Shown here: piece after piece, positions 1,704 to 64,000 of the stretch
Numbering within the stretch: the first letter of the stretch is position 1
How the letters are laid out: each line of letters starts with the position of its first letter
From: Eledone cirrhosa
Taxonomy: Eukaryota
Direction of reading: 5' to 3'
Assembly: GCA_964016885.1 (NCBI GenBank)
Contig: OZ024740.1
Location: 164,796,001 to 164,860,000 of the forward strand
DNA: 64,000 nt
Translations under genes and position numbers: made by a program
The notes under the pieces: generated by a model
Told to the model about the DNA's origin: nothing
Seen by the model: the letters and a program-made list of their open reading frames with translations, nothing else
The model's database searches: none

Positions 1704-1946
1704 ATTATTATTATTATTATCATTATTATTATTATTGTTGGTGAAACCACGCTTCTTATCGCCTCCAGTTTTTTTCAACGTTTTACCTCGTTTTCAACCG
1801 TTCTAAACCTCTTATTCAAGTTTTAAATTTGATAAAAGTTTTAAATAAGTGACCCACCTTATACAGGGTTCACTCGTAAATAATACGGCACCCCTTTACG
1901 GGGTATCGTATTTGTGCAAAAATATTTTTTGAAAAAAAAATTCAAC

Positions 1947-3935
1947 ATGGATAACACAAGAAAGAGAGAGAGCGCTGTCAGACAACACAGAGAGAGGAAG
2001 ACTTTATCAGCATGTCAACAAGACAGCGTTCCGGCGGAGGTAAATATAAACGAAAATATTACAAAGGAAAAGAGGATTGTTACAGATTTAAAATTACCAA
2101 ATATTTCTAACACATACAACACCAACAATAACACCAACAACAACACTAACAACAACAACAATAATAGTAGGAACAGTATCAACAAAAACAACAATAATAA
2201 CAACAGCCACAGTAACAGTAACAACAGCAACAGTCAGTATCAACGAAAACAACAACAACAACACCAACAATTGTACCAACGAAAACATCAACAATGACAT
2301 CGATACCTGTAACAGCGATCTCAGCACCACCAGTAAGACCAGTAGCGGCAGCAATAGTGGTGCTGCTGAAAAAGGGACCACTTCTTTTGCAGGTGTCGCC
2401 CGAAATATCGAGTCAGTGTTAGTCAAAGAGGAGGAGATGGCAGTCGCAAGGGCCATGGTGACAAGAAGCGCCAATAGAGTCTCCCTGAAATCTCCACCCG
2501 ATATTTTCAAGGACCAGCAGCTACGGATGGTGACTTACCGCACCGTAAGCAAAATCTCACATCGGGTGGCGAGAGCCACGGAGGCTCAAATCCAAAAGGC
2601 CTTGGGGTGCGTCTGGGCACGCAAAACCCACATCACCCGAGGCAGAAAGTACGCCACAGTAGATGTACATTTCGCCACCCCCCAGGAAGCGAAGTCTCAC
2701 TCTTTGGAAACCCTAAAGAGTGATGAGATAGTTTTGGTGCCCTCCTACTGCGGCAGAAAATTGTGAGGGTCAAAGTGACACAGGTTCCACCCGACGTGCC
2801 CATACCTTTGGTGGCCGCGTCTGTCCTTACTGTAATCGAGGACAGGACGACCATGCTGCAAGTAGAGAAAATAGGGAGAGAGAACTGGTCAGGTATAGGC
2901 ATGTAAATGCTTATACAAACTGACCAGGAATGTATCGACGCTATCCCCGATATCATAGACATCGATGAAGGACTCCAACTCCCTAAAAGCGTAGAAGGAA
3001 GACGGCAAAAATGTTATCTCTGTGGGTCGAAGGGTCACCTCAGGGCCTTTTGCCCGCAGAAGATAGCGAAGAAGAAGGCCCCTCTCCTTCCAATACCTGG
3101 TCCGCTGCTACCAAGAGCAGGGCAGGGAACAAACGCAGAAGCCCCTTGCACGGTGAGTAGGAGGGCAACGTCCGTGGCAGCCGTACCAAGGCCACGGACA
3201 ACTAAAGCATCAGCATCAGTGGCGGCAACACCAATAGCTAGATTTGAAGTAGCTACACCAGCAACAAAATTGCCGAAGAGGGCTCCACTACCACCACCAA
3301 CAGCCGTGGAGCACATACCCCTCCCAGGCGCCACGAATCCGACAAGGAGTTTGAGGCGGGAGTGAAGTGGCAAACGGTCTGCCACAAAAAACAAAAACCC
3401 CCAAAAAACCTTATATTCACCCTCCAAAAGCAAAGGCACACAAAGAGAGGTAAAGGCAGCAAGGAGACTTGCAGCAACACCACCACCATCACCATCACCA
3501 CCACAAGCACCACCGCCAACAACAACCACACCACCACCAGCATCACCAAAAACACCAACAACGCACACAAAACAAAACACACACACCAAACAGCAACAGG
3601 AAGAAAACAGCAACACAATCACCCCTCCCCCCAAAACGCACACAGCCATAAATATGGCAAATAAAGAACTCATACAATATATAAAGCAGCACACAGATAT
3701 CACAGAAAAAAACTACTACACCCCGCCAACACCAAAAACTCTCCTGACAAATATAAGCATCATTGAAATCTCAATAGAACAGTACAAACATTTAAAACAG
3801 AATTTCCCCAACGCAGTTGGTGACTTCAGAGTGTCGGTTACCAGGAGGATATACACTGACATCCTCTTGGAAACACCCATTACCAGCCAAAGGGACAGTT
3901 ATACTGTCCCTTCACCACACGATCAATGTAAATGA
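1947..3935 (+). pseudogene. Tx1 ORF1 (gag-like), frameshifted
   Basis: Asn-rich N-terminus, SFA motif, putative RRM-like region, CCHC knuckle CYLCGSKGHLRAFC, Pro/Thr-rich linker, and a C-terminal block shared with copies 2 and 3. Confidence 0.8.
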
Positions 3936-3967
3936 CCTTTTCTCACTTGTCCTGTTTCTCATTCAAC

Positions 3968-6666
3968 ATGGTCGTACTCAGAATAGGCAGTATAAATGCA
4001 CGTGGCCTGGGGTCATCTTGGAAGCAGGGTCACCTGTTAAACGACGTCAGTTCACTAAATATAGATGTGGAAGTCATCAGCGAAACCAGAATCTCCGAAG
4101 CACAAGCACCGATCTTCGGCGACTACGATGTATGCGCATCTCCCAGCCGTCCAGGATCGGGGGGAGGGGTTGTCGTCCTTTTTCGGAGAGGCTTGGATCT
4201 TGCCACACGGGCCATCTTCATAGACCAAGAAGGTAAGTCGGTGGTGCTGGACGTGACCGGCAGCGAAGGCAATGCGTTCAGGCTAGTAGCCGTCTACGCC
4301 CCAACAGGGGCAGGACGGCCAGATTGCTTCAGACGTCTAGAGACCTTTCTTGGAACGTCCCGCTCTTTAGTGTTAGTGGGCGACTGGAACGGTATCTTTG
4401 ATGCACGCTTGGATTGTGTGGGGCTAGTGGATAGGGGAGGAAGGTATAAGACCCTCACCAACCTGCTCAGACGTTTTGAACTGTCTGACAGGTATGGACT
4501 GGATCACCCGAATTTGCCAATGTGGAATGGACAAACCGCATCGGGTCATGGAGTTCAGTGCATACCTCGACGGACTGCCTCGGCTCTCGACGACGTAGCA
4601 CAGTGTTGCGAAAAGCCAATAACAGCCGGGGAAATACCGGAAGCGATGGCTAACTGCACGAGGGATAAATCGCCAGGTTTGAATGGTCTGCCCTACGAGC
4701 TTTATGCATTTATGCCAGACTTGTTCGGTGACCTCTTGGCACACGTCTACTGCAACTGGCAGCAGAACGGGAGCATTCCCAGTTCTGTGATCCGGGGAGC
4801 GGTGGCGCTGCTGAGAAAAGACCCGAACAAGGGGGATGTTATCGATAATTTCATGCCCAAGATTTTGGCCAAGGTATTAGCAACGAGGTTGGCACTTTTC
4901 GTCAAGTGTCTGGTGGGAGAGGCGCAAACATGCGCCATTCCGGACATATCCATATACGACAACCTCCACCTCATGCGATACATCATAGAGAGGGTGTTTA
5001 AGGAACCTGGCACGGGTGGGGCCCTGATAAACTTGGATCAATCCAAAGCATACGATAGGGTCCACCATCGGTACCTGGCGATGGTCCTCGAGGCAGCCGG
5101 TTTCGGGACCGTATTCAGGGGTTGGATCGCTGCGATGTACAGCGACATCTGCTCAGTTGTGATGGTGAACGGTCACCTGTCGCAGCCGTTCAGCATCATG
5201 CGCTCAGTCCGCCAGAGTATTCCCCTCTCATTCCTCTTGTACGTATTGCCTCTCGAGCCGTTACTGCACAAACTGGGGGTGATGAGGGGCGTCCCACGCG
5301 AAATAGGATGCGGGAAATCCGAGTAGGTTTACGCCGACGACGTCACCGTGGTGGTGTCGAGCACCAGACACGTCCAGATGCTCGGCACCGCTCTCAAAGA
5401 ATACTAAGCGTTGACAGGAGCAAAGATAATCCAGGAAACGTCGGTGGTCTTGCAGCTCGGCACCTGGAGAGACAAGTCCATGCCGTCCGACAGCGTCATG
5501 GGGCGTTGGACGGACGGACCCGTTATATTGTTCGGGGTCTGATTCGGACCGGACCTCCAGATGGAGAAAAACTGGAACGAGGTGACGAGCAAGGCGGCTT
5601 CCCTCACTCAGAAAGGGGCCGAGAGGAGGCTGTCCCTGAAAGGCCGAGTGTAGGTGGCGAATGCGTACATCGCATCCGTCATCTGCTACCGCCTTAACGT
5701 CGTCCCTTGCCTCGGCCCAACTCTCACCAAAATGGAGCGCCTCCTCTTCCGCTTTTTGTGGAGGGACGCGCTCCCATGGTCAGACTATCCATCTGCTGTC
5801 AACACCCGTTGCGTGGAGGACTGGTCATGCCATGGCTGATGATGCGCAAACATGCGCTGAGGCTGCGGCATCTCTGGTGCTTCCTTGACGGTGAACAGGT
5901 GTGGTCGCCATTCGCCAGGCACCTTTTTCCACAGCTCATCTCCTTGACGGAGCTGCAGTCCTGGGTCAGAAAAAGACCGAGTGATAGCGCTTGGAAACTG
6001 GAATGTCTCCAGGCGCTCACTACCCTCTGCCAGCTGGGCACCAGTATCGGTGGAACGTCCACCTCGGCGTTCTATAGAGGACTAGTGGAGGGGAAGAGCG
6101 ACGACGTTCTCGGAGAGATCCTGGGCATCGAAGAAGATCAGCTGTTGGCTCTCTTCCGGAGAACTTTCAGCCCAGGGCCTATGAATAACTTCCCAAAATC
6201 CCTGACCTGGCAGTGCTACCGGGAAGAGCTGCCGGTTCCAGATAAGCTCTACAGGCACGGAAGTGTCGTCAGCCGAGCCTATCCGTGATGCGTCATCCAC
6301 TCACTCGTTCTGTTCCCGAGCATTGCAGACTTGTGAAGCTATGTCGAACAGTTGCTGTCGCGTGTAGGACTGATCCGGTTATCGACTGAATCCATTGTGC
6401 CGTCTTCCTTAGAGGAGGAAGGGCAGGCGATTTTCATCTGCCTGGTGGCCATTGCGAAAGAGATTGTGTGGTGGACAAGGTTGAAAGGGTTAAAGACAGA
6501 TACTTTCCTCTTCGGCGAATCCCTAATTAACTTTTTCAAGTTTCACTTGAAGAGGAAAATCAGGGCGGAGAGGCAAGTGCTCCCTTCTAGCAAGTTTGTT
6601 GAAAGGTGGGTGAATGTAGCGAGAATGGTCCGAGTGAACGGGACCGCTCTGAATATACGCCTGTAG
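3968..6666 (+). pseudogene. Tx1 ORF2: APE endonuclease, reverse transcriptase and C-terminal Zn-binding region, with stops and deletions
   Basis: APE motifs GSINARGL, ISET, AVYAP and VGDWN; RT motifs KSPGLNGLP, DQSKAYDRV, SVRQSIPLS and YADDVTV (5329-5350); C-terminus WWTRLKGLK. Confidence 0.9.
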
Positions 6667-6958
6667 TTTGAGAAATGGAAAAATTGAGAGAGGGCGCTTG
6701 CCCTGGTTGTCAGGGTGGCCGTGGTCTTTTGTGTGGTTTTCGTCACGAGTAACCCTCGGAAGTTTCCCCCCCCCCCCATTGGGGAATTTTTCATTGTTTC
6801 AATATTCATTTTTATTGTTTACATATATGTTTCTATGTCTTTTTTTTCCTTTCTTATATAAATAATAAACATATTTACACGCACAAAACCCACATCGTAC
6901 CGTCCTGTGCCGTCTGTAATATTTTTCTTGATGTCAGCCCTTGTGGCCAATAAATAAA

Positions 6959-6960
<2 letters not shown>

Positions 6961-6993
<33 letters not shown>
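6961..6993. repeat. (ATT)n between Tx1 copies 1 and 2
   Basis: Read directly from the sequence. Confidence 0.95.
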
Positions 6994-7195
6994 GGCGACC
7001 GACGTAGTAAATCGTATCATCGTGAGCTCCGCAAAGGTTTGTTGTTTTTAGTTGTTTAAAATTGCCATTTATGGAACATTTTTATTGTTAACTGTATATA
7101 AGTGCCCATACATTGTTTTCTGAAAAGGATACTCAAATAGATTGGGGCCTAGAGCCCAAAATTTAAACTTTTATAATTATCAAAAAAAAAAAATC

Positions 7196-9110
7196 ATGGT
7201 CGAACCCAGTAGCTGAGAGCCTTCCTCACAAACTAACACCTCACACCGACACCACCATTGTAAATATTACTACGTTTGCCAACACTAAAAATATAAGCAG
7301 TAGCAATATTTTAAATTTGTCTCAGGCAGACATTCATTTCCCGCCATTACCAATGACTGCAGGTGTTGAAGATGCCACCCTCACCACTACAACACTGACA
7401 ACAGAAACACAAAAGAAAAAAATAAATTATCTCGTGATATCGAAATGAACTCTTCCACGCCGAACACAACTGAAACTAAAATTAACAATAACAAAAATAA
7501 CGATAACAACAACAGCAACAATGAAATTAAGAAAACTACCCTCAGTTTTGCCAGAGTAGCACAAACGTGCGAAGCGATCCAAGTAACTCAGCAGGAATTA
7601 GAAGCGAAAAGAATGGTAAAGAAAGTTGGTACAGGGTCAGATTACCCCCCCCCCCCCCACTCACACACACCTAATAAAATGGAGCATCGTCGCCTATGCA
7701 CTGTGTCTTATCGGACAGTTAACATAAAATCGCGCCGAGTGGAACGGACATCGGAGTCCCAAATCCAAAAAGCTTTGGGACATGTGTGGGCAAAAAAACC
7801 CCACATCAAACGTGGGCAGAAATATGGAACCGAGGACGCGTTCTTTGAAACACCAGAGGAGGCCAGAGAACACTCCATGGCCCCATTAAGAAGTGACGAC
7901 TTCACACTCGTCTCAAGCTATTGTAGCCAGAGACTCGTGAAGATCAGGGTGACCCACGTTCCACCGGTCATCGAAATTCCCTGGTTAATGGCTGCCGTCC
8001 TCGCCGGCATCGAGGCCAACACCAAGTTAATCGAAATAGCGAAAGAAAAGCAGGAGAACTGGTCCGGATCTGGGATGGAGCTCCTGATCCAAGCGGACCA
8101 AAAAAACATTAAGGAAATTCCGGAGGTGATAGACCTCAATGACGGCAGCCAGCTCACCGTAATCGTCGAGGGCAGAAGGCCTAGGTGTGTCGCAGTGGTG
8201 AAGGAACCCACCTAAGGGCTTTCTGCCCTCAAGCTAAAAGGTTGAGGCCCCCTCTCTTACCCATCCCAGTGACTCAACCATCAACACCACCAGCATCAGA
8301 GATGGCAGCAACAACTGTAGCAGCAACAACAGAAGCAACTGTAACAGCAACAACCGCAGCAACAGTAGCAAAACGAACACCACCACCACCACCAGCAAAA
8401 CCAACACCACCACCACCCAACGCGCCAGAACTAGCACCAGCGCCTACACCATCCACCACGCCACAACCAAAACCAACGCCTGTGGAGGATTTTCCACTCC
8501 CCAGCTTATTGCAACTGGAGACAGATTGTGACGAAGAGGATAAGGAAACGGTATCAGAAAGTAAGAAAAAAAGAAAAAATTCTCTTTCTTCCACCTCCAA
8601 AAACAAAATACAGAGGGAAACAAATAAACTATCAAACATAAAGTTAGGACAGATATGCCACCATCCACACCAGCATCACCAATCCCATCACCACAAACAC
8701 CAACACCATCACCATCATTAACCCCAACACCACCATCACCAACACCACAAAAGTCACCAAAAAGCGAAACAGAAACAAACCCACAACAAACGCAAACAAA
8801 ACAAAACAACCAAAACGATATACACTACACAGCATTAAATTTGAACAACAACCAATTATTACACTACATCCAACACAACACCAGCATCACAGAAAAGAAT
8901 ACACAACAACCCAAAAGTTCACACCACCTCCACACATACAAATCACTCGCATCACACAGAAAACATACACGACAATAAAACAAAAATTCACCAAAGACAT
9001 CGGAGACTTCCGACAAACACTCTCCAGGAGGATTTATAAGGACATCCTGCCGGAGAAGGCCACGAGCAGTGAAAAGGATGGACAAACCATCCTTCCTCTA
9101 CGAGAAGTAA
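7196..9110 (+). pseudogene. Tx1 ORF1 (copy 2), frameshifted
   Basis: SFARVA, YRTVNIKSRRVERTSESQIQKALGHVWAKKPHI, knuckle remnant ..GEGTHLRAFCP, Pro-rich linker. Confidence 0.8.
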
Positions 9111-9149
9111 GGTAAGTGGTCTTTCCCATCTTTTCCACTCCATTTCAAC

Positions 9150-12100
9150 ATGACCTCACTCAGAATAGGCAGCATAAATGCCCGTAGATTGGGGTCGTCA
9201 TGAAAGCAGGGCCACCTGCTCAACGACCTCAGGTCACGAAACATAGATGTAGTGGCCATCAGCGAGACCAGAATCTCCGAAGCATGGGCCTGATTTCTTC
9301 CGGCGTCTGGAGACCTTTCTTGGAACGTCCCGCTCTTTAGTGTTAGTGGGCGACTGGAATGGGATCTTAGATGCACGCTGGGACTGTGTGGCATTAGCGG
9401 AAGAGGGTGCAAGAGCCTCACCAACCTGCTCAGGCGTTTTAAACTGTCCGACAGGTACCGATTGGATTTCCTGAATGTGCCAATGTGGACTTGGACAAAT
9501 CGCATAAGGTCATCCAGATCATATCTAGATAGAGTTTTTGTAGGGAAATAGATAGGTCTAGCATAGGCTGTCCACAATTCAAGATAGTCAGCTACACGAA
9601 CCACAAATTCATGATCTGTGTGCTTGACTTAGATAGGCGTCATAGACGAGGACCCGGCTACTGGAAGCTAAACGCGTCCATACCAGCGCGCAAGGCCTAC
9701 AGAGACCAGATTAGCGAACTAGTTAAGCGGGCGTTGACGGGGGCCATCGTCAACAACATGTGGTGGCTTGCTCTGAAAAGATCAATTAGAATAGAGTCCA
9801 TCAGGTTTAGTAAGGCTTTAGCAATAGAGATAAATAGAGCAGAGGGATAATTAGTTAGAAAATTAGACGAGGTGCTTAGCAAAGGCATCGCGACCGACGT
9901 ACTTGCGGCGAAATTTGTCCTTGACCAATTCTTCAATTCAAAGCACGAAGGCTGCGTTGTCAGAGCTAGGGTGCGTGCTTTCAGACACGAGGGGACGAAA
10001 GCTGTTCAATGGGCCCTAGTGGAGGAGGCGTGTCGTGGCAACAAAGCCACAATCCGGTCTTTGGTGGACCACGACGGGCACATGCTACTCGATCCCGGGC
10101 AAATGTGTGAAGCTTTTCAGCGACACTTCGCACAGTTGTTCGAGGGCAGCAGCGGGCCGGATCGAGGGATGGACTTTAGTGTCTACCTCGACGGACTGCG
10201 GCGGCTCTCGGCCACTGAGGCGGAGTGTTGCGAAAAGCCGATAACAGCCGCTGAAGTACGAGAAGCAATGATTGGCTGCACAAGGTGTAAATCGCCTGGT
10301 TTGGATGGTCTGCCCTATGAACTTTACGTACAGATGCCAGACTTGTTCGGAGGCCTCTTGGCGGACGTCTACTGCAACTGGCAACAGAACGGGAGAATTC
10401 CCAGCTCTGTGAGCCGACGAGCTGTGGCGCTGCTGAGAAAGGATCCGAACAACGGGGATAACATAGATAATTTTAGGCCCATAACTCTGCTAAACACAGA
10501 GTTCAAGATTTTAGCCAAGGTGCTAGCAAATAGGTTGGCGCTCATCGCTGGTGGTCTGGTGGGACAGGAGCAGACATGTGCCATTCCCGACAGATCCATC
10601 CACGACAACCTCCACCTCATGCGATACATCCGGTAGCTAGGGAACCTGGCACGGGTGGGTCCTTGATCAATTTAGATCAGTTGAAAGCTTTCGATAGGGT
10701 CGACCATCGTTACCTAGCGGCAGTCCTGAGGGCGGCCGACTTTGGACCCGTCTTCAGAGGCTGGATCGCTGCCATGGACACCGACATCTGCTCTGTGACG
10801 AGAGTGAATGGTCACCTTTCGAAACCGTTCAACATCATGCGCTCGGTCCGTCAAGGATGTCCCCTCTCGTCCCTCTTGTACGTATTGACTCTCGAGCCAT
10901 TACTGCACAAACTGGAGACGTTGAGGGGGGGGGGTCCCCCGCGCGAACTAGGATGCGGAATATCCGTGTCAGAATATGCGGACGATGTCACCGTAGTGGT
11001 GTCGAACGCCAAACACATCGAGGGGATCGGTACTATACTAAGAGAATACGAAGCGGTGATAGGAGCAATGATCAACCAGGAAAGGTCAGTGGGCCTGCAG
11101 CTCGGCACCTGGAGTGGCAGGTCCATGCCGTCCAACAGCGTCGTCGGGCGCTGGACGGACGGACCGGTTAAATTGCTCGGGGTCTGGTTCGGTCCTGACC
11201 ACCAGACGGACAAAAACTGGGACGAGGTGACGAGTAGGGTGGCTTCTCTCACCCAGAAATGGGCGGAGAGGAAGCTATCCCTGAAAGGTCGAGCGGAGGG
11301 GGTTAACGCGTTCATCGCGTCGGTCATCTACTACCGCCTGACCGTCGTACCTTGTCCTAAGCCCCGCCTGACTGCGCTAGAGCGTTTGCTCTTTCTCTTT
11401 TTGTGGAAGGGACGCGCTCCGATGGTCAGGAGGTCCATCTGCTGTCAACACCCGCTACGTGGAGGGCTGGGATGCCGTGGCTGATGATGCGCAGACACGC
11501 ACTCAGGCTACGACATCTCCACCTCTTCCTCGACGGTGATCAGGTGTGGTCGCCGTTTGCTAGACGCATCTTTCCCAGCTCGTCTCCTTGACGGAGCTGC
11601 AGTCATGAATCAAGCGAAGACTGAGCGGGAGCGCTTCGAGACTGGAATGTCTTCAGGCGCTCATAGCCCTCGACTAATCGGGCAATGTGATCGGTGGAAA
11701 CTCCACCTTGGCGTTCTATAGAGGATTAGTGGAGGGGAAGAGCGACGACGTACTTGGGGAAACTCTAGGCACCGACGAAAATCAACTAGCCAATCTCTTC
11801 GGAAGAACTTTCGGGCCGGGGCCTATGGACAACTTCCAGAAATGCCTGGCCTGGCAGTGCTACCGAGGAGCTTTGCCTGTTCGGGATAAACTCTACAGGC
11901 ATGGAGGTGCCGTCACCTGAGCATGTCCGAGATGCGCGCAGAGCGACGAAACCGTCCTGCACGTACTCGTCCAGTGTCCGAGCATTGCTGACTTGTGGGT
12001 TTATGTCGAACACCTGCTGTCGCGTGTAGGACGGATCCAGCTATCAGCTGAGTCCATCGTGAGGATTGCCCCGCCCTCTTCCTTTAGCCGGGAAGGACAG

Positions 12101-12340
12101 GCAGGTTTTATCTGTCTGGTGGCCATCGCGAAAGAGATAGTATGGTAGACACGTTTGAAAGGGCTGAAGACGAGCACTTAGCTCTTCAGTGATGCCCTGA
12201 TTAACCTTTTCAAATTTCATTTGGAAAGGAAAATCATGGTAGAGAGGGAAGTGCTCTCTTCCCAGCATTGTGTTGAAAGATGGGTGAGAGAGGCATGAAT
12301 GGCCCGAGTGAATGAGCCTACTCTGAGTATGTGTCTGTAA
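9150..12340 (+). pseudogene. Tx1 ORF2 (copy 2): APE with an internal deletion, RT and C-terminal Zn region
   Basis: GPGYWKLNAS, NFRPITLLNTEFKILAK, DQLKAFDRV, VRQGCPLS, YADDVTV and CPRCAQSDETVLHVLVQC. Confidence 0.9.
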
Positions 12341-12600
12341 ATTAAAGGTGGAAAACTGGGAGAGGGCACTCGCCCTGGTGGTCAGGGTCACTGTGGCTTT
12401 TTAATGGGCTTTCTCCACGTATGTCCCTCGGAAGTCTCGCCCCTATTGGGGAATTTTTTCACAGTTCTATTATTACATCCTCTGTTTCTTGTTTTTTTTA
12501 CACACAGAAATTCTCTTTTGTACCGTCCTGTATTATCCTGTACTGTCCTTAATGGCTACTTTTTGTAAACCCTTGTGGTTAATAAAGAAAGCATTATAAT

Positions 12601-12780
12601 GGTGGATTGACAGTATCGGTAGAGAGTCGGACGCCATGCTTTCCAGCATAGTTACGTCCCTTTACGGTTTGAGTTCAAATCCCACCGAGGTTCACTTTGC
12701 CTTTCATCCTTACGGGGTCGATAAAATAAAGTACCAGTAATGTACTGGGTTATTGCTGGCCTGTGCCAAAAGTAGAAACA
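12601..12780 (+). mobile_element. tRNA-derived Nin-domain SINE, near full length (octopus OR1/OK-like)
   Basis: A-box-like TG(A)CAGTATCGG, B-box GAGTTCAAATCC, Nin/Deu-type core GCCTTTCATCCTTACGGGGTCGATAAAATAAAGTACCAG, ATT tail. Confidence 0.88.
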
Positions 12781-12801
12781 ATTATTATTATTATTATTAT
12801 T

Positions 12802-13037
12802 ACAGTTGCATTTATCTTGCTTTATGTTCATGCGAGTTATCACCAAGTCACAACCAGTGACCTCAAGAGACAACAAGGTCCGCCATGTTCAAGAAAGAAC
12901 ATACATACACACACATGCATCTTTAGATGTTTAGACTTGTGATGTACATATATTGACAGAATCTTCCTTAGTATATGGGCAGTTCCCATTAGTACTATCT
13001 TTTGTATTTTTACTATACGCAGGTTTCCTGGGATTTG
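12802..13037 (-). mobile_element. 5'-truncated Dong-type 3' end (family B)
   Basis: Encodes IQKIVLMGTAHILRKILSI plus a 3' UTR matching 14106-14335. Confidence 0.9.
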
Positions 13038-13101
13038 TCGATAAAATAAAGTACCAGTTATATACTGGATAATTGCTGGCCTTGTGCCTAACGTAGAAAC
13101 A
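13038..13101 (+). mobile_element. Nin-SINE 3' fragment fused to the preceding Dong fragment
   Basis: TCGATAAAATAAAGTACCAG...GGCCTTGTGCCTAACGTAGAAACA followed by ATT. Confidence 0.88.
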
Positions 13102-13129
13102 ATTATTATTATCATTATTATTATTATTA

Positions 13130-13208
13130 CAGTTGCATTTATCTTGTTTTATGTTCATACGAGTTATCACCAAGTCACAACAAGTGACTTCAAGAGACAA
13201 CACGGTCC
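13130..13208 (-). mobile_element. Extreme 3' tip of Dong family B
   Basis: About 75 bp matching 14106-14180 and 12802-12880. Confidence 0.85.
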
Positions 13209-14070
13209 TGGGCATCGAAGAAGATCAGCTGCTTGCTCTCTTCCGGAGAACTTTCAGCCCGGGGCCTATGGATAATGTCCAAAAATCCCTGGCCTGGCAG
13301 TGCTACCGGGGAGCGCTGCCGGTTCAGGATAAGCTCTACAGGCATGGAAGTGCCATCAGCCGAGCCTGTCCGAGATGCGCGCATAGCGACGAAACCGTTG
13401 TGCACGCACTCGTTCAGTGCCCGAGCATTGCTGACTTGTGGAGCTATGTCGAACAGTTGCTGTCACGTGTGGGACTGATCCGGTTGTCGACTGAGTCCAT
13501 TGTGCAGATGGTCTCGCCGTCTTCCTTTGAGGAGGAAGGGCAGGCGGTTTTCATCTGCCTGGTGGCCATGGCGAAAGAGATTGTGTGGTGGACAAGGTTA
13601 AAAGGATTAAAGACAAACACTTTCCTCTTCGGCGAATCCCTGATTAACTTTTTCAAGTTTCACTTGAAGAGGAAAGTCAGAGTGGAGAGGCAAGTGCTGC
13701 CTTCTAGCAAGTTTCTTGAAAGGTGGGTGAATGTAGCGAGAATGGTCCGAGTGAACGGGACCACTCTGAATATACGTCTGTAGTTTGAGAGATGGAAAAA
13801 TTGAGAGAGGGCGCTTGCCCTGGTAGTCAGGGTGGCTGTGGTCTTTTGTGTGGTTTTCGCCACGAGTAACCCTCGGAGGTTTCCCCCCTATTGGGGAATT
13901 TTTCATTGTTTCAATTTTCATTTTATTGTTTATATATATATATGTTTTATGTCTTTTTTCTTTTCTTATATAAATAATATAAATATTTACACGCACAAAA
14001 CCCACATCGTACCGTCCTGTTCCGTCTGTGATGTTTTTCTTGATGTCAGCCCTTGTGGCCAATAAAGAAA

Positions 14071-14072
<2 letters not shown>
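13206..14072 (+). mobile_element. 5'-truncated Tx1 subfamily-1 copy (ORF2 C-terminus and 3' UTR)
   Basis: Closely matches 6119-6960; intact CPRCAHSDETVVHALVQC; ATT tail at 14073-14105. Confidence 0.92.
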
Positions 14073-14105
<33 letters not shown>

Positions 14106-17100
14106 GCATTTATCTTGTTTTATGTTCATACGAGTTATCACCAAGTCACAACCAGTGACCTCAAGAGACAACAAGGTCCGCCATGTTCAAGAAAGAACAT
14201 ACATATTCACTCATGCATCTTTAGTGTTTAGATTTGTGATGTACTTATATTGACAGAATCTTCCTTAGTATATGGGCAGTTCCCATTAGTACTATCTTTT
14301 GTATTTCTCCTATACGCGGGTTTCCTGGGATTTGCGATATGTAATCATTAGACCCCTTATGTACCATTCCCAGAGCGCCTACAACCACTGGTATTGTTTT
14401 AGTTCTCAATTTCCACATTTTTCCAATTTCTATCTCCAGGTCCTTATACTTGCTCAATTTTTCTAATGTTTTTATAGATACATTCTTGTCTATTGGAACA
14501 AACAGATCAATTAGCAGGCATACCCTCTTTTGAAAGTCCTTCAATATTATATCAGGTCTATTTGCATCTATTTTTCGGTCTGTTTGGATGCTAAAGTTCC
14601 ACAAGATTGAGATGTGATCTTTTTCAAGTATGGGAGGTGGTTGATGCTCCCACCAATTCTTTTGATGGGGCAGGTCAAAATGCTTACACATTATCCACTG
14701 TATGTATTGTGCAGCTCTGTCATGCCTGTTTAGGTATTCGGTTGGAGCTATAGGACTGCACATTGAAATTATATGGTCAATGGTCTCTGGTTGTTTCTTG
14801 CATACACGGCATAATGGGTTGCACCCATTTTTTATTATGTTGGCTTGATAATTTTTTGTTGGCAGACACTGATCTTGTGCTGATATAAAAAGTCCTTCAG
14901 TCTCCGATTTCAGTCCAGAGGATGCCAACCACTGATGGGTTAAAATTTTGTCAACATCAGGATTGTTAGCTCTTTCTGGGTATTTTCCATACAGAGGCTT
15001 TTCTTGCCATTTCTTAGCCAGTTTCTGTAGCAGTTCTTTCTTTGCAGTTACTTTTACCTGCTTTGCTTTTTCTGTGTTTTCCATTTCAGCAGTAAATGGG
15101 ACTTCTGAAATTTGTAGTCCCTTACTGTATCTTTGTGCATCTTTTGTAATGGAATATGATATTTTGATGCTTTCGTGTTTCAAAACGAGTTTGATCATCC
15201 AATCATGTGATTCCCTTAGATATGTAGATAATCCAATTGTTGCAGTTTTCAACGCAATGTCTAACTGGATTAACCCACGTCTCCTTCTTTCCTAGGGAGA
15301 TATATTCTATCTATATCTGCCTTAGGGTGATGTATTCTGTTCATGGTTAAGAATTTTCGAATTTTTGTATCGAGCCTACGGATCTCTGTGCTTGACCAGT
15401 TGATGACATTGTAACTGTAGGTTACTACTGGTATGGCAAGCATGTTTATGGCATCGATCCTATTCCTTGCATTCAATTCTGTTCTTAAGATTGTTCTTAC
15501 TCTGCGGTAACATTCCTTCCTTATCCTTTCCCTCATTGTCGAGTGCTTGATTCCGTCTCCTTCACAAACACCTAGATATTTGTAAGTTTTTTCTTGATCA
15601 AGTTCTCTTATCACGTTCCCCCGATCAGCAGCTTTCCTCTGGTGAACGTTGCTTCGGCGCATTTATCTAGTCCAAACTCCATTTTAATGTCATCACTGAA
15701 CTGCTCCACAGTAGATAATAGCCCTTGCAATTGTTCATCATTTTTTGCAAATAGTTTCAGGTCATCCATGTAGAACAGGTGATTAATGGTTTTGTCATAG
15801 ACTTTATATCCATGTTTTGTTTCATTGAGCATTTTACTTAATGGTATAAGTGCGATGCAGAATAAAAGCGGTGATAAAGAGTCACCCTGAAAAATTCCAC
15901 AATTAATATTAACTTCTCCAGCTTCCAGTGATTTTTTTTCACTATTCAAAAGGAGTGTCGTTTTCCATGTCTTCATACTGAATGACAAAAACCTCCTGAC
16001 AACGGGGGATATTTTGAAAATCTCTAAACATTTTTCAATCCAACTGTGTGGCAAACTATCGAATGCTTTTTTATAATCTATCCAAGCAATCGATAGATTT
16101 TTGTGTCTATTATGACAATCTTCCAGTATCATTTTGTTAACCAGAAGCTGATCCTTACAGCCATATGAGCCTCGTTTACACCCTTTCTGCTCAATGGGAA
16201 ATAGGTCATTTGTTATCAGGTGGTCATATGTGTATTCAGTTAGGACTGATGTTAAAATTTTATACATTGTGGTCAAGCAAGTTATCGGTCTGTAATTTTT
16301 GGGATTGTTTGTCTCATCATTCTTCGGAAGCAGGAATGTAATGCCGTTAACTAGCCATGATGGTATCTTTTCTGGCTCCTTAACTATTTCATTGTAAAGT
16401 TGGGCTAACAGCTCATGAGACTCTGTGAAGGCATTTATCCAAAAGTTTTGTAATTTGTCTTTTCCTGGGGATTTCCATTTGCTGGTTTTTCTTAGAGCCA
16501 AGCGCAACTGTTCAACTGTTATATTTTCCCATATTTGTTCCTCAAGGTGAGCTGTATCTTTCATTTGTCTGTCTATCCATGGGGCATGAATGTTATGAAC
16601 TTTTTCTTCGGCCCAGATCTTTTCCCAGAATTCTTGTACTTCCTCCTTGGGTGGTATTGATTTAGCAGTTATTGTTGACTTACCAATTTTTCTGTAGAAG
16701 TTTCTTTGGTTGTTTTTGAACATATTATTGTCCTTATAGAATCTAGATCGCTTTTCAAAGCGCCTTATACGACCAGCTTTGGCCGACACTTTTTGCTTGA
16801 TTATTTCTATCAGCATGCCTATGTCACATGTTAATTTTATACTGTACTTTTTTTCAATTTTCTAAGTTTAGTTTGTTTAACATGTTCGCCTACTTTATAG
16901 TTTGTTAAAATTTCTATGTCAGATCGGAGAAGGTTTATTTGGCGATTGATGTTCTCTTGCCAAGTAGATTTCTTGTGGGAATTCCTTTGTTTTTTCATCT
17001 TCACTCCACATAAGTGAGTGGTGACTTTAGCCGATGCATAATAGAGATGATTTAAATCAGTAATGTTTAGTTTGTTTGTGATGATAATGTTTTTGAGAAT

Positions 17101-17935
17101 TATGTTAGTCTTGTGTATTATCTTTTGGTTCTGTTTGGAGTTCTGGATCTTAGGGAGGGCGTCTCTTGCCCCATGTCAGATTCTTTCATTTTCATCCATT
17201 CGATCATAATTTCATCCTTCAAGTTGGCAAGTTCATTCTCATTCATTTCTTTATCATTTACGATCTCATTATTTTCATTTGGAGTTTCATCCTGAGAATG
17301 CACTCCCTCCACTTTTTCGATCCTTTCTTTAATTTGTTCTGTTGCCAGTGATTCCGCCAATTCTTACAATATTTCTTCGTATATTGGCTAGTTTGTTACT
17401 GTCAATATAGCCTCTGTTCTAGGGATGTTTCTTTTTCCAGTTGATATATGTCTCTTCTGTATTCGATGTATTTGATGGGTAGTACATGGCAGTGTAGAAA
17501 GCCTCAAGGACTTCTTTATTATCTTCCCTTGACCATTTTTCTCTCTTTTTCTTTGGATTCCTTGGTGGTGAGCATGGAGGGCCAACAGTAGGAATATTCC
17601 GGTTATGGGAGGTCTCCAGCTTCGAAGTGATGGGAAGGTTTGAACCATTAGCTGATTTTTCGACCCCAGTCTGGTTCCTCTCTGAGGGACGCGGCCCTTT
17701 TACCCGGGTGACGGCCGATCCGGTATGAGATTTTATCATTAGACATTTACTTTATTTTGTCGCGTTTTATCCTTACCCGCCAAGGGGTAATCATTTCGTG
17801 TTACCACTTCTAGAACGAGTGTCAACCAAGACTAGAGGGGTCGTTCTCCCCTAGAGACACGGCTATTCCCCGCCGGCCGCCATCCCGGTATTTCTTGGTC
17901 ACGGGGTTTTCTTTTTGTTGTTTTATTTAAATTGT
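14106..17935 (-). mobile_element. R4/Dong-type non-LTR retrotransposon, near full length (family B)
   Basis: Single frameshifted ORF (about 17740 to 14245): KKREKWSREDN; RT motifs NYRPITCL, WIDYKKAFDS, GIFQGDSLSP and HLFYMDDLK; CCHC CRVCKKQPETIDHIISMC; RLE RPDI...LLIDLFVP...EKLSKYKDL; TAA tail. Confidence 0.92.
14245..16816 (-). pseudogene. RT, CCHC and restriction-like endonuclease of Dong family B (three overlapping ORF pieces)
   Basis: ORFs 15611..16816, 15270..15662 and 14245..15252. Confidence 0.9.
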
Positions 17936-17992: not shown

Positions 17993-18043
17993 AATAATTG
18001 TCTCCACTTCAGGCACAAGGCCAGCAATCACCCAGTGCATTAC
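17993..18043 (-). mobile_element. Nin-SINE 3' fragment
   Basis: Reverse complement reads GTAATGCACTGGGTGATTGCTGGCCTTGTGCCTGAAGTGGAGACAATTATT. Confidence 0.8.
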
Positions 18044-20112: not shown

Positions 20113-22297
20113 GGCGACCTCCGGAGGAAATCGTATTATCGTGAGCTTCGCAAAGGTTTGTTGTTTTCAGTTGTTTCAAATTGCCAGTCATGGAAAATGT
20201 TTGTAGTTAAGTGTTTATAAATTCACATATATTGCTTTCTGAAAAGGACACTAAAAAAGATTGGGGCCTTGAGTCCAAAATTGAAACTTTTATAATTATC
20301 AAACAAAAACTTTCTTTGAAAAAAACCTGGCGCCTCACAGCCATACAAATCTGACAGTCTTCCTTACAAACTAACACCTCACACCAACACCACCATTGTA
20401 AATATTACTATGGTTGCGAATACTAAAAATATAAGCAGTGGCAATAATTTAAATTTGTCTCATGCAGACATTCATTTCCCGCCATTGCCAATAACTGCAG
20501 GTCTTAAAGGCGCCACCCCCACCTCCACAGCGACAACAGAAACAAAGAAAAATAAATTATTATCTCGTGACATCGAAATGGATTCACCCAGAATCGACTC
20601 TTCCACGCCAAACACCACTGACGCCACCACCACCACCACCACCACCACCACCACAACTGAAACTAAAAATAACAATAACAAAAATAACAATAACAACAAC
20701 AGCAACAACAACAATGAGAATAACAAAAACAACATCAACAACAGTTCAAAACAAAATGTGTCGTTTGCCAAAGCAGCCAAGCAAAGCGAAACAATCGAGG
20801 TAAGCCAGGATGAATTAAATTAAGCCAAGAGAATGGTAAAAAAAAGATGGGTACAGGGTCACCCCCCATCTAACAAAATGGAGCATCGGCGCCCATGCAC
20901 CATGTCATATCGGACAATAAACACAAAATCACGTCCAGTTGAACGGGCATCCGAGTCCCAGACACAAAAAGCTTTTGGACATGTGTGGGCGAAAGAAAAC
21001 CCACATCAGACGTGGGCAGAAATATGGAACCGTGGACGTGTTCTTTGGAACACCACAGGAAGCCAGAGAGCACTCCATGGCCCCATTAAGAAGTGACGAC
21101 TTCACACACGTCCCAAGCTATTGTGGTCAGAGACTCGTGAAGATCAGGGTGACCCACGTTCCATCCGCCATCAAAATTCCCTGGCAAATGGCTGCCGTCC
21201 TCGCCGGCATAATAATTGAAGCAACAAAAGATTTGAAAAGTAACGAAAATAATTGAAGTAACAAAAGAAAAGCAGGAGAACTGGTCCGGATCTGGGATGG
21301 AGCTCCTGATCCAAGTGGACCAAAAAAACATTGAGGAAATTCCAGAGGTGATAGACCTCAATGACGGCAGCCACCTCACTGCCAATCGTTGAGGGTAGAA
21401 GGGCTAGGTGTGTCGTTTGTGGTGAAGGAACCCACATAAAAGCTTTCTGCCCTCAGGCTAAGAAGTTGAGACCACCTCTCCTACCCACCCCAGTGACTCA
21501 ACCATCAACACCACTAGCAGCAGAAATGGCAGAAACAACTGTAGCAGCAACAACAGAAGCAACTGTAGCAGAAACAACCCCAGCAACAGTAACAAAACCA
21601 ACACCACAACCACCCACCGCGCCAGAATTAGCATCAGAACCTCCATCATCCACCACGCCACAACTAAAACCAACGCCTGTGGAGGATTTTCCACTCCCCG
21701 ACCTATCGCAACTGGAGACAGATTGTGACGAAGAGGAGTGGGAAACTGTATCAAGAAAAAGGAAAAAAAGAAAAAGGACCCAAAAAACAAAAAATCTTCT
21801 TCCTTCCACCTCTAAAAACAAAATGCAGGGGGAAACAAATAAACAAACAAAAAAAGTTAGGACAGCTATTCCACCATCCACACCAGCATCACCAATCCCA
21901 TCACCACAAACAACAACACCATCACCATCATTAACCCTAACACCACCATCACCAACACCACAAAAGTCACCAAAAAGCGAAACAGAAACAAACCCACAAC
22001 ATACGCAAAAAAAAAACAACATTAAATTTGAACAACAACCAATTATTATACTGTTACCAATTATTACACTACATCCAACGCAACACCAGCATCACAGAAA
22101 AAGACTACACAACACCCCAAAAATTCACACCACCTCCACACTTACAAATCACCCGCATCACACAGAAAACGTACACGACACTAAAACAAAAATTCCCCAA
22201 GGACATCGGAGACTTCCGACAAACATTCTCCAGGAGAATTTATAAGGACATCCTTCCGGAGGAGGCCACAAGCAGTGAGAAGGATGGAAAAACCATC
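20113..22297 (+). mobile_element. Tx1 subfamily-2 copy 3: 5' UTR and ORF1 only, 3'-truncated
   Basis: Colinear with 6994-9090; knuckle CVVCGEGTHIKAFC; similarity ends abruptly near 22297. Confidence 0.88.
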
Positions 22298-34370: not shown

Positions 34371-34687
34371 TTGTTATAAGGTGAAGAATATAGTGGAAAA
34401 TTTAGTTCTAGATACAAATAACTCTGCATGGTCATGGCTAGAATGTTTTGTAATACAAGTGTTCTTGATCAGAGCTGACGTCAGGCTACATAGCAACCAA
34501 CACCATCTTAATGAACAACATACTGAACCACAGTAAGTATAATCACCATTAACAGCAACATCGACACCGAAGTTAACAACACAACAATAAATAATGTGCA
34601 AATGTGGTTACGCGAACTGTTAGATATAATGGAAACATCTTGTTTTATCAAGTGGCACACATTTGATAACGTTTACTTGAATATATA

Positions 34688-34870
34688 GTGGATTGGCAGT
34701 ATCGGTAGAGGGTCGGACACCATGCTTTCCAGCATAGTTACTTTCCTTTACGATCTGAGTTCAAATCCCGCTGAGGTTAACTTTGCCTTTCATCCTTACG
34801 GGGTCGATAAAATAAGTACCAGTAATGCACTGCTTAATTGCTGGCCTTGTGCCTAAAGTAGAAACAATTA
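34688..34870 (+). mobile_element. Nin-SINE
   Basis: TGGCAGTATCGG, GAGTTCAAATCC, Nin core and CCTTGTGCCTAAAGTAGAAACAATT. Confidence 0.9.
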
Positions 34871-34920
34871 TTTAAAAAACAAAAATAAGAATACTCTTGT
34901 ACCGTCTATATGAGGCCGGA

Positions 34921-35137
34921 AATAATGATTTCTGATTTAGGCACAAGGCCAGCAATATTTTGGGGAGGGGAAAGTCGATTAAATCGACCTCAGTGCATTA
35001 CTGGTACTTTATTTTATCGACCCCGTAAGGATGAAAGGCAAAGTTAACCTCGACGGGATTTGAACTCAGAATGGAAAGGGCCGTAACTCTATGCGTCAAA
35101 GCATGGCGTCCGACCCTCTACCGATACTGCCAATCCA
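34921..35137 (-). mobile_element. Nin-SINE, long variant
   Basis: Full head and core, with about 30 extra bp before the 3' motif. Confidence 0.9.
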
Positions 35138-35400
35138 TACCAATAATACCACAATTACATTCACGCCCTTTTCATCAATAGAATGTTATAAATCGTTTTG
35201 ATATTTACTACACATAATATTTCGAAGGGAACAAATCGAAACGCTACATCACTAACCATTATTACAACCACAGACATCGAACCCCCTATCGTCACCACTG
35301 CCGCCGCCACCATCACCGCCACCACAACTACCACCACTCCCTCCACTTTCACCACCAACAACAACAACATCAACAACGAAAACAACAACATAATAATAAC

Positions 35401-35574
35401 AATGTTTCTACTTTTGTCACAAGGCCAGTAATTATCACAGTGCATCACTGGTACTATATTTCATCGACCCCATAAGGATGAAAGGCAATGTTAACCTCGG
35501 CGGGATTTGAACTCAGACCTTAAAGGGGCGTAACTCTGCTGCAAAGCATGGTGTCTGACGCTTACCAATACTGC
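35401..35574 (-). mobile_element. Nin-SINE
   Basis: Matches the consensus. Confidence 0.85.
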
Positions 35575-35580
35575 ACTATA

Positions 35581-35766
35581 ATAATTGTTTCTACTTTAGG
35601 CACAAGGCCAGCAATTACCCAGTACATTACTGGTACTTTATTTTATCGACCCCGTAAGGATGAAAGGCAAAGTTAACCTCGGCGGGATTTGAACTCAGAC
35701 TGTAAAGGACGTAACTATGCTAGAAAGCATGGCCTCCGACTCTCTACCGATACTGCCAATTCACCA
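35581..35766 (-). mobile_element. Nin-SINE
   Basis: Matches the consensus; tandem with the preceding copy. Confidence 0.9.
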
Positions 35767-36059
35767 TACTGAATAATAATGTCATTATCACCATTATTAT
35801 GTCCACAGCTTACCACCACTGTTATCACATTTAAAATTTACACTGCATCCACCATTACCATCACAGCGAAACCCAAACAGCAATCACAAAACGAAAGTAT
35901 TATAGCATTGGTTTTATTAGTAAAACAAACAAACAATACAATAGAATATCTAACCTTAGGTACACCACCAGTCAGACTATTTAGCACTCAGACCAAAACC
36001 AAATGACTACCAATAAAACCATCACCATTCCTTTTGTATTTGTTCCCTGACCATCGCTG

Positions 36060-60588: not shown

Positions 60589-60778
60589 TAATTGTTTCTA
60601 CTTTAGGCACAAGGCCAGCAATTACCCAGTGCATTACTGGCACTTTATTTTATCGACCCCGTAAGGATGAAAGGCAAAGTCAACCTCGGCGGGATTTGAA
60701 CTCAGATCGTAAAGGGACGTAACTATGCTGGAAAGCATGGCGTCCGACCCTCTACCGATACTGCCAATCCACCGCCCT
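60589..60778 (-). mobile_element. Full-length Nin-SINE inserted in (TA)n
   Basis: Runs from GGGCGGTGGATTGGCAGTATCGG to GTAGAAACAATTA. Confidence 0.92.
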
Positions 60779-61553: not shown

Positions 61554-63572
61554 TTCTTCTGGTTTTATAATTTCACAAATTTTTACCAAAAGAGAGAGAG
61601 AGAGTCGGTTTCTAACATAGTTACAAGACTCTCTCATTGGAATTTACACAACATCAACTAAGTAGATATGTCTGCATGTCTGCATTCATGCATGTGTGTG
61701 CAGGTATGGATGTTGTTGTATGTGCGGATGTGCATGTTTTGAGTTATATGTTTGCATGTGTATATTCTTTGTATCAGTACATGTGTACAAGGAGTTATTA
61801 GATGCAGAATCTTTGGAATGTATTACATATATTTAATGCTCCATTAATGGATTGTACTTTTAATTTCCTAATTAGTCGTATTCTTTCTGTTTCTGTCAAG
61901 CCCAGCCTTTCAAGATTTGTACTGAGGCAGTTAGTAACATATCTCTGTGCCCCACATGTATAAATCTGAAGGTATAGTCAGGGTGGAGTATCTGCAGTTT
62001 TCTAATTAGTTCTGCATATATATATATACTATTTTGCGTTGATTTGCTGTTCTTGGATTGCAAAAGCGTCTCCTTCAAAGTGGGAGCCAATATAACGGTT
62101 GTTGGTCTAAGATAGACTACTTTGCTTATCTACCTTACTCTCACTCTGGAGCTTCCTGGCAACATATCCATGCATGATATTTTGTTGATAAGCATGCAGC
62201 TTTTCATCCATGGATTTAGTGCGGTATTGCTGGGCAATTTCCCAGGGTGTGAGTTTTTGATTATCATGCAAGGAGTATCTTTCAAGGAGTTCCTTCCCAA
62301 CTATCATGATCTTGTCTGTCTCATGCAGACAGGCTTACTTAATAGATGGGCTCCTACGCTGCGATGCTCTTAAATGTTATTAGAGGGATATGATGCGACA
62401 TTGAAATGCTGTTTAGACTGATGTTAGGCCTCTGCCTCCTTACTTAGGTTTCTATGTCAATGTTGATGTGGAAGTTTCCTCTGTTGTTAGAATGTTTCGA
62501 GTCTTAACTTCAATTGTTCGGATTTCGTCTTTCGTCCAATCGAGTATTCCAAACGTTGTTGTTAGGACAGGCCCAGCAACCATATTGTGAGCCACTGTTT
62601 TATTGTGCGCAGAGAGTTCCGATGACGATATTGTTTCTTAACCGGATGTAAAATTCCCTGGTTATGCGTTCCTTATTACAGATACCATCATAGGATATAT
62701 TCTCATGTATCATCAGGTATCTGTAGCAGTCTTCATCAGATATCCGTGAAATAGTTAGGCCATTGATAAAAATGTTACTACAGTGGGTTGCAGTTTTTCC
62801 CCGCTTTATGAAAATTTATCTTGGCGAAACTCCTTTGTGAATGTTGTAACCAGGTTCAGATTGTTCTTCATCCCATTTATATTCTTGGCATAGAGTTTCA
62901 GTTCATCCTCAGAAATCATGGGTTAAGTTCGTATTTGTGTCCTCCTTTGAGCCAATGATGTATCCTTCACATTTCTTGAGCAGTAAGGACAAGGGGTTTA
63001 ATGACAGGATAGATAGTAGCACAGAGAAACTGAAATATACCCCCTGTGATATTCTATTTTGTCAATGAAAATTGAGTCCTACTTCTCTGTTTTTAACTTT
63101 TGGGTAGTAGCCCAAGGAGAAAACAGCTTTTCTATGACTCTGATAATGTCTGGGATTTAGCAAGTCGGAGGGCCTCTATCATCCAAGAGTGGGGAACAGA
63201 ATCAAATGCTTTCCTGTAGTCCAGCCAGACTGTAGCCATATTCCTCCTAAGTTGTTGCAAGCCCGACATCGCAGCTTTGTAAATTAGGAGTTGTTCAGCA
63301 CATCCCCAAACATCTTTCTGTCCAGCTACTTGTTCATCTTTGATGTTGTTCTTATTTTCACAGTGATCTTGGAGAAATAGGTTCAGGCAGGCTGCTTACA
63401 TTATACAACAGATTCTGGCATGCAATGGTACGGTAGCTTTTTGCCAAGTAGGTGTCTTTCTTCTTGGGGACCAGTATTGTTTGTGCTAATGTCAACCATT
63501 CTGGTATATGTGCATCTCCCTTCAGGGCTTGCTGGTAGATGTCAATAAGATACATCCGATAGAAAATCGGAG
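61554..63572 (-). mobile_element. 5'-truncated, decayed R4/Dong-like RLE retrotransposon (family C), flanked by (TATG)n
   Basis: IPEWLTLAQTILVPK..YRTIAC.N, GCAEQLL, WLDYRKAFDSVPHSW and YAELIRKLQILHPDYTF; ORF ends near 61797. Confidence 0.8.
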
Positions 63573-64000
63573 GTATGTATGTATGTATGTGGTCTTTATC
63601 TCTTAATTTTTGCTTTATTTTGACCAGCCACCTTTCCGGGTGTGAGGTTGTAAAGCATATGAAATGGTTGTCCTACCTGTGCAATCGGTGATCCTTTAAA
63701 TTTTTGACTTTTACATATTTAAAAGGTTCTAGATATCGCGGCTATTTGTACCGTTCTATTTATGGAGCGGCGTTCTTTCTCCACAAATTCAAGCTCAGTC
63801 ATATTTGATCCAGGTGTGCAGTATATAAACTATAGCTCCAATAATAATTGGTCATTCTTTACATTCTGGTCGATTGTTAAGACAACAAAATAATGGTAAA
63901 TTCCATCAGCCTCACACAGGTGTTTTTATACTAAATTGTTAGATTAATTTTCATAGTAAAAAGTATGTGCGTTGAAGCCTCTAACACTAAGTTAATTTTT

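Follow-up and report, generated by a model that had tools for sequence, protein, structure and literature searches.

The stretch of DNA analysed here, below called the window, comprises 64,000 nt of contig OZ024740.1 of Eledone cirrhosa, and all coordinates are positions in it. Between 1.3 and 22.3 kb it carries a nest of retroelements whose members are linked by (ATT)n runs. The plus strand of this nest bears three copies of a Tx1-type long interspersed element (LINE), plus the start of a fourth at 20113, and pieces of a short interspersed element (SINE) lie among them (Table 1). A preliminary description of this DNA had claimed that the SINE and the LINE end in the same motif, CCTTGTG-N8-AGAAA, ahead of an ATT tail, and that this Tx1 drives the SINE. 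The results presented below indicate that the SINE and Tx1 are likely a stringent SINE/LINE pair.

An intact second open reading frame (ORF2) of the LINE, 1195 aa long, was found at locus L246. It matches PF03372 (apurinic/apyrimidinic endonuclease, APE), PF00078 (reverse transcriptase, RT) and PF13966 (C-terminal zinc-binding region). The best solved relative of the protein is human L1 ORF2p (E 2e-52, versus 1e-21 for R2), its closest named homologue is from Argonauta (73%), and one of the 120 homologues listed is named 'Transposon TX1 149 kDa protein' (32%). By its predicted domain content and its best solved relative, the LINE is a member of the L1 clade, while its target specificity and the one named homologue suggest that it is Tx1-like. 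A tree was built from the C-terminal 405 residues of ORF2, with 18 copies and 12 database proteins, none of them a named Tx1 reference. In this tree, the ATT-tailed and the TATCT-tailed Tx1 groups separated at 100/100, and at least three lineages were found within the ATT group. An (ATT)n run lies behind 29 of the 30 top Tx1 copies. It also precedes the 5' end of all 11 full-length copies, among 19 fetched, whose 5' end was reached. Two Tx1 elements were seen inserted at the head of a SINE: one at L020, and one of the TATCT group (L056:2540-6300), which has no ORF1, an intact ORF2 of 1153 aa and a target site duplication (TSD) of about 15 nt.

The terminal motif proved to be real. The window contains 13 matches with at most one mismatch, compared with a mean of 0.36 and a maximum of 3 in shuffled sequences. 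The Tx1 ends lie at 6939, 12571 and 14051 as had been described, each followed by ATT. The SINE copies named there also exist and end in the motif, their positions being slightly different from those given (34845 instead of 34846, and 60595-60614 on the minus strand instead of 60589). SINE and Tx1 ends are identical at 15-17 of 22 positions in the terminal register; the earlier value of 15/22 for the short SINE against the end at 14051 was reproduced. In shuffled LINE untranslated regions (UTRs), the chance of at least 16/22 at a given position is 3e-5. The shared terminal block is about 24 nt long and is identical in old and young SINE subfamilies. The six bases that follow the stem described below read AATAAA in the LINEs and vary among the SINE subfamilies.

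The motif and the LINE complement were surveyed in 79 evenly spaced 10-kb stretches of the genome, i.e. 790 kb of 2,996 Mb (0.03%). This sample gave 112 motif matches, against one in a 200-kb Markov control: about 96 SINE ends, 12 Tx1 ends, one word in an R4-like LINE and about three unassigned matches. In all Tx1 families seen, also those outside the window, the motif lay exactly at the 3' terminus. The claim that "this Tx1" drives the SINE is not supported as far as it names one Tx1 family, since the motif marks a whole Tx1 clade and is carried by at least three ATT-targeting lineages. When the 790 kb were scanned with a position weight matrix (PWM) of the SINE tail, high scores recurred, besides at the SINE ends, at the 3' ends of Tx1 elements and at a word located in a Tx1 5' UTR. 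The Tx1 ends of the window scored 13.6-20, and the R4-like word with its tail 1.6. The 5' UTR word belongs to the lineage of copy 2 (window 7147-7180; also L057 and L040) and reached 21.1 and 16.2, comparable to the 3' ends. An old repeat (L296-L315) with about 16% divergence (n=20) and an AT-rich body of 250-400 nt also has the exact Tx1 block, followed by (ATT)n, at its end. Within 1.5 kb upstream of this repeat no ORF2 was found, and it may be either an old Tx1 3' UTR or a non-autonomous element. The old family around L065 has the motif and the ATT tail, with no ORF2 linked upstream.

The first 11 bases of the motif form a predicted hairpin of three to four pairs with a CUUGU loop. Most Tx1 families have GCC-CTTGT-GGC, copy 2 has ACC-CTTGT-GGT, and the SINE has GGC-CTTGT-GCC, its middle pair being changed from C-G to G-C. 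Covariation was evaluated on 16 family representatives (13 Tx1, one old family of unproven type and two SINE). Pairing was kept in 58 of 64 cells (90.6%), including 48 of 48 for the three inner pairs, and double changes occurred in three of the four pairs. The covariation score of 0.321 was reached by none of 500 shuffles, which is no probability because the structure was derived from the same, related sequences; the best slid control gave 0.069. The SINE stem could result from a swap of the middle pair, or it could be the four-pair GGCC/GGCC stem of a third ATT lineage with one pair lost. Equilibrium folding, with 150 nt of context included, gave the hairpin a pairing probability of 0.54-0.98 in all six Tx1 ends. 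A master SINE subfamily with a broken inner pair was considered and rejected: the G-to-A variant has 4,481 matches versus 170,582, with spacers that mirror those of the main subfamilies.

The SINE is a short, non-coding, high-copy element of about 180-225 nt, whose tail has at least 170,582 exact matches genome-wide. Among 96 copies, 42 are truncated. Its head contains words that resemble the A and B boxes of RNA polymerase III promoters. ARAGORN detected no tRNA in the SINE, and an Rfam scan of SINE copies gave no tRNA either, just sub-threshold miRNA matches due to two inverted copies. The label 'Nin-domain' that the SINE had been given is not kept. Compared by eye, the published Nin domain (PMC4758252, supplement 4) has no visible counterpart in the SINE, and two 14-mers of that domain match the window at chance level only, outside the SINE copies; the core may be another described domain. 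Median divergence from the group majority is 3.0% for the CCT type (n=20) and 8.3% for the CCA type (n=33); the 22.7% of the long form (n=22) is an overestimate, as subfamilies were mixed. The young short form has about 35-40 nt less than the long form and has gained a competing stem overlapping the hairpin of the tail; it is nonetheless the most abundant form. A second, older SINE-like family (L042, L054, L066, L068, L087, L088, L096, L105) has head and core in common with the SINE, but its tail is another and longer one that lacks the Tx1 block, suggestive of a tail exchange and another partner. The SINE was also present on contigs of four sequencing runs from other organisms, chosen for Tx1; one contig carried a Tx1 end, with the motif unchanged.

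The insertion signatures of the two elements were compared using anchored TSDs of at least 9 nt. Such TSDs flank 37 of 96 SINE copies (control 4.4%), with a median of 14 nt, and 30 of the 37 start with ATTAT. They flank 12 of 41 truncated ATT-group Tx1 copies (control 8.7%), with a median of 13.5 nt, and all 12 start with ATTAT, in a set collected by search patterns that match only tails stopping after ATTAT or ATTATT. TSD lengths do not differ (p=0.81), and a pyrimidine (C or T) occupies position -1 in 29 of 37 SINE and 10 of 12 Tx1 cases. The SINE and Tx1 signatures thus agree in their Y^ATTAT start and in similar TSD lengths, in keeping with the partnership drawn in the preliminary description. 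Most SINE ends have just 5-8 nt of ATT behind them. The TATCT-group Tx1 was rejected as a candidate mobiliser: no SINE end is directly followed by TATCT (the SINE's own ATTAT end could mask it), and none of the 37 SINE TSDs has a TATCT start among the six starts listed.

Strand polarity and age were also compared. Within 120 nt behind 98 Tx1 tails, 59 first neighbours could be identified, on the same and the opposite strand respectively in 23 and 2 cases for SINE, 16 and 1 for Tx1, and 1 and 16 for R4. That the SINE follows the Tx1 strand in the array holds for three of four pieces in window 1-22500 and for 23 of the 25 SINE neighbours behind Tx1 tails; the piece at 17999-18043 is opposite. 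At least two R4/Dong-like families occupy the same ATT arrays at window 1296-22300, on the strand opposite to Tx1 and the SINE, and long mixed nests result. The youngest SINE overlaps in age with the Tx1 ATT families of this genome, the 3.0% of its CCT type comparing with median divergences of 2.9% (n=14) and 4.4% (n=16) for two Tx1 ATT clusters, sets that are biased young by exact search patterns. For Tx1 copy 3 (276 nt compared), 40 genome copies were found at 98-100%.

Table 1. Retroelements, terminal blocks and simple-repeat tails in the 64,000-nt window of OZ024740.1
Feature	Positions	Strand	Basis
Tx1-type LINE copy 1, ATT-targeting group, decayed, internal deletion relative to the other copies	1737..6960	+	RT and APE Pfam matches; alignment to other copies
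Terminal block of Tx1 copy 1: GCC-CTTGT-GGC (6937-6947), predicted to form a hairpin, followed by AATAAA and A(T)AAATC	6937..6960	+	
(ATT)11 tail and target behind Tx1 copy 1	6961..6993	+	
Tx1-type LINE copy 2, of a second lineage in the ATT group, decayed, almost full-length	6994..12592	+	RT matches; tree
Terminal block of Tx1 copy 2: ACC-CTTGT-GGT, predicted to form a hairpin (A-U in place of a G-C pair), AATAAAGAAAGC	12569..12592	+	
Full-length short-form SINE adjoining the tail of copy 2; 1-nt deletion within its own motif	12599..12780	+	
(ATT)n run	12781..12801	+	Sequence
R4/Dong-like LINE, 3' fragment	12802..13043	- (opposite)	
5'-truncated SINE, motif at its end (13080)	13037..13101	+	
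R4/Dong-like LINE, second short 3' fragment	13129..13208	-	
5'-truncated Tx1 copy 3; predicted hairpin GCC-CTTGT-GGC at 14049-14059	13206..14072	+	zf-RVT match
(ATT)11 tail and target behind Tx1 copy 3	14073..14105	+	
R4/Dong-like LINE, (AAT)n tail, end without the motif	14101..17900	- (opposite)	
Short-form SINE; predicted hairpin GGC-CTTGT-GCC at 34843-34853; ends in AGAAACA, then ATTAT	34684..34866	+	
Long-form (older) SINE, same predicted hairpin	34927..35148	-	
Short-form SINE named in the preliminary description	60593..60773	-	
Motif-like word in the 3' UTR of another R4-like LINE whose (CATA)n end comes 54 nt later; rival tail source	61607..61628	-	

The element at 14101..17900 was assigned to the R4/Dong-like clade from its RT and a PD-D/ExK-type C-terminus, which we take to be diagnostic of that clade. 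A cluster of five SINE copies, among them one inverted and one tandem pair, lies at window 34684-35768; if transcribed, they could form long double-stranded RNA.

Taken together, the common target and TSD length, the strand polarity, the covarying hairpin and the overlapping ages support the partnership of Tx1 and the SINE; the Nin label and the restriction to a single Tx1 family did not stand. The ATT-group Tx1 is quite probably the mobiliser of the SINE. With somewhat less assurance, we lean towards its enzyme copying the SINE by acting through the shared predicted hairpin. According to this mechanism, an RNA polymerase III transcript of the SINE would present the hairpin, and the Tx1 ORF2 protein would bind it, recognizing the stem by shape and the loop by sequence, as modelled on zebrafish L2. 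The Tx1 endonuclease would nick opposite Y^ATTAT, the AUUAU end of the RNA would pair with the nicked DNA and prime reverse transcription, and a second nick about 9-20 nt away would produce the duplication. That the SINE does without the AATAAA kept by the LINEs would be expected if only an RNA polymerase II transcript needs it.

Several observations weigh against this interpretation. The shared block, at 15-17 of 22 bases, falls well below the 50-100 nt that classic pairs have in common, the pair swap specific to the SINE is one single event, and the covariation was scored on the sequences that had supplied the structure. Under the folding conditions given above, the hairpin had a pairing probability of 0.00-0.01 in all four SINE copies; in the short form, folding favours a competing stem, and none of the single-sequence fold z-scores was significant. 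The whole SINE RNA, once folded, does not favour the hairpin, whose formation would need to be local or induced by binding. On the side of the target, full-length Tx1 lies in ATT arrays whereas the SINE is mostly found at lone ATTAT sites. The Tx1 duplications come from 60 of 305 pattern matches used as loci, and 3 of the 12 are low-complexity. Finally, the LINE census covers 790 kb of the genome, a CR1-type LINE coincides in age with one SINE subfamily, and an R4-like word resembles the tail of an old SINE variant more closely than chance would predict; both LINEs are discussed below.

The same target and polarity could be produced if the ATT-group Tx1 mobilised the SINE in a relaxed manner, through the AUUAU end and its pairing with the target, the hairpin block being a leftover of the tail's origin or kept for another reason. 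This would agree with a hairpin that is unfavoured in the whole SINE RNA, and the target and polarity data do point to the endonuclease and not to an RNA signal. We nevertheless regard it as rather unlikely, because coordinated changes have kept the stem paired from family to family, with free variation in the adjacent SINE spacer, and because the block is unchanged between old and young SINE subfamilies. Another LINE might also be the mobiliser, either a CR1-type family that is abundant, has an (ATT)n tail and does not figure in the preliminary description, or one absent from the sample, in which a rare family could have escaped notice. The CR1-type LINE has 5,372 exact ends genome-wide, and its divergence of 8.5% (n=22) resembles the 8.3% of the CCA subfamily; CR1-related LINEs also serve bivalve SINEs in the pairs reported in PMC11481361. 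Its 3' end, however, lacks the motif, and its ATT tail (5-29 nt, mostly 9-17) is templated and not duplicated: an anchored TSD was found in 1 of 21 truncated copies, against 37 of 96 for the SINE (p=0.002; Tx1 versus CR1, p=0.045). In the 790-kb sample, the elements of RTE, I/Nimb-like, other CR1/L2 and R4 type bear other tails and have no motif at their 3' ends, and a search for a LINE combining the exact SINE stem with the Tx1 spacer (AATAAA) gave four matches, all of them SINE copies. A mobiliser of this kind is therefore unlikely. Among the LINEs surveyed, abundant RTE-like elements (L060, L066, L088, L109, L052, L039) were observed in which a PHD finger immediately follows the RT and the end is (GAT)n.

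The preliminary description had itself named a Dong-like element near 61.6 kb as an alternative source of the tail. The word in question was located at 61607-61628, and the element, or an ancestor of it, might have supplied the SINE tail as a past or present partner, the likeness to Tx1 being then due to convergence or a later switch. Over the bare 22-mer the word is indeed closer to one old long-form SINE variant (17-18/22, against 16/22 for Tx1), and 0.003 such matches are expected in shuffles of the 2,081-position UTR pool. By one of the refuting criteria set in the preliminary description, a better match of another LINE to the SINE tail, this partly tells against the Tx1 reading. Over 29 nt, in contrast, Tx1 is ahead for all four SINE variants. 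The word lies inside the UTR, the element going on for 54 nt to a (CATA)n end in the 30 copies read; it has no three-pair stem, being located in a different long hairpin, and it scored 1.6 with the PWM against 13.6-20 for Tx1. This element is thus disfavoured as mobiliser, and an origin of the tail from it is very unlikely. The capture of a SINE end into the R4-like UTR would account for the match equally well, and the word is better read as a captured SINE end or as a sign of shared origin. The (CATA)n-targeting family to which it belongs (window 61555-63700, minus strand; L110-L139) has a long hairpin in its 3' UTR, with the SINE-tail-like word in the loop, and several copies then run into the same other element end. 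Pure chance, with SINE and Tx1 meeting merely through a common preference for AT-rich microsatellites, is highly improbable. The match is short and unrelated R4 elements share the array context, yet it keeps the exact terminal register, at 3e-5 per position, and includes a complementary double change; moreover, R4 lies on the opposite strand and the SINE on the Tx1 strand.

Stringent pairs of the L1 clade have been reported in maize (ZmSINE2/ZmSINE3 with LINE1-1_ZM) and Chlamydomonas (SINEX-3_CR with L1-1_CR) (PMC3472496, PMC3747384). As these sources describe them, they share with the present case a 3' block common to an L1-clade LINE and a SINE and, as far as the predicted structure holds here, a hairpin whose stem shows compensatory changes and whose loop and 3' flank are conserved. 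They are plant and algal pairs sharing about 50-80 nt and ending in poly(A), whereas here an animal, microsatellite-targeting Tx1 type shares about 24 nt and an ATT end. The same sources state L1-clade LINEs to be an exception to tail sharing, with three SINEs with L1 tails set against over 800 LINEs of the L1 clade as counted in 2012, the named cases being plant and algal. For the crocodilian SINEU, the one Tx1/SINE case found in the literature, mobilisation by Tx1-Mar was likewise deduced from target preference and concurrent age (PMC4494074). According to that account, snRNA heads and poly(A) tails characterise SINEU, and no LINE was found to resemble the 3' half of SINEU-1; the SINE described here is putatively of the tRNA type and has a terminal block in common with Tx1. 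Two Tx1 families that target microsatellites, Kibi with (TC)n and Koshi with (TTC)n, reported in the same paper, are also APE-type LINEs with lineages specialised on simple repeats; the targets found here, ATT and TATCT/CTAT, set the present families apart by description. The proposed mechanism takes as its model eel UnaL2/UnaSINE1 and zebrafish ZfL2-1/ZfL2-2, for which ORF2 is reported to bind a 3' stem-loop with an exchangeable stem and a specific loop, followed by a short repeat (PMC4176376). Those elements belong to the L2 clade and were tested in assays, while the stem considered here is a predicted one of three to four pairs.

In molluscs, the bivalve HCD SINEs have CR1-Zenon, Nimb, CR1 and I as reported LINE partners (PMC11481361), and 'Tx1' has no occurrence in the text and eight supplements of that paper. 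Together with the octopus OK, OR1 and OR2 SINEs (cited in PMC4824008), they are tRNA-type elements with exchangeable tails, as far as these accounts go, and the present SINE may resemble them in this. In Octopus vulgaris, SINEs make up 11.6% of the genome and 893 of 900 recently active SINE families were reported as unclassified, the portion of PMC13282606 considered here naming no partner LINE. A search of the openly accessible literature, outside Repbase, yielded no description of this Tx1/SINE pair.

A SINE/Tx1 partnership has rarely been described for the Tx1 group. We regard as evenly balanced the wider proposal that an animal lineage of the L1 clade (Tx1) reads its own RNA stringently through an 11-nt hairpin, which would be among the smallest such signals; that a SINE mimic with a swapped pair has passed 170,000 copies; and that the choice of RNA (the hairpin) is separate from the choice of DNA (ATT or TATCT), so that only the ATT branch drove the SINE. 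Were this proposal right, Tx1 would be a main engine behind the expansion of octopus SINEs. With an animal Tx1 pair and sister families that use the same RNA signal on a different target, an ancestral stringent recognition in the L1 clade would become testable by a few point changes.

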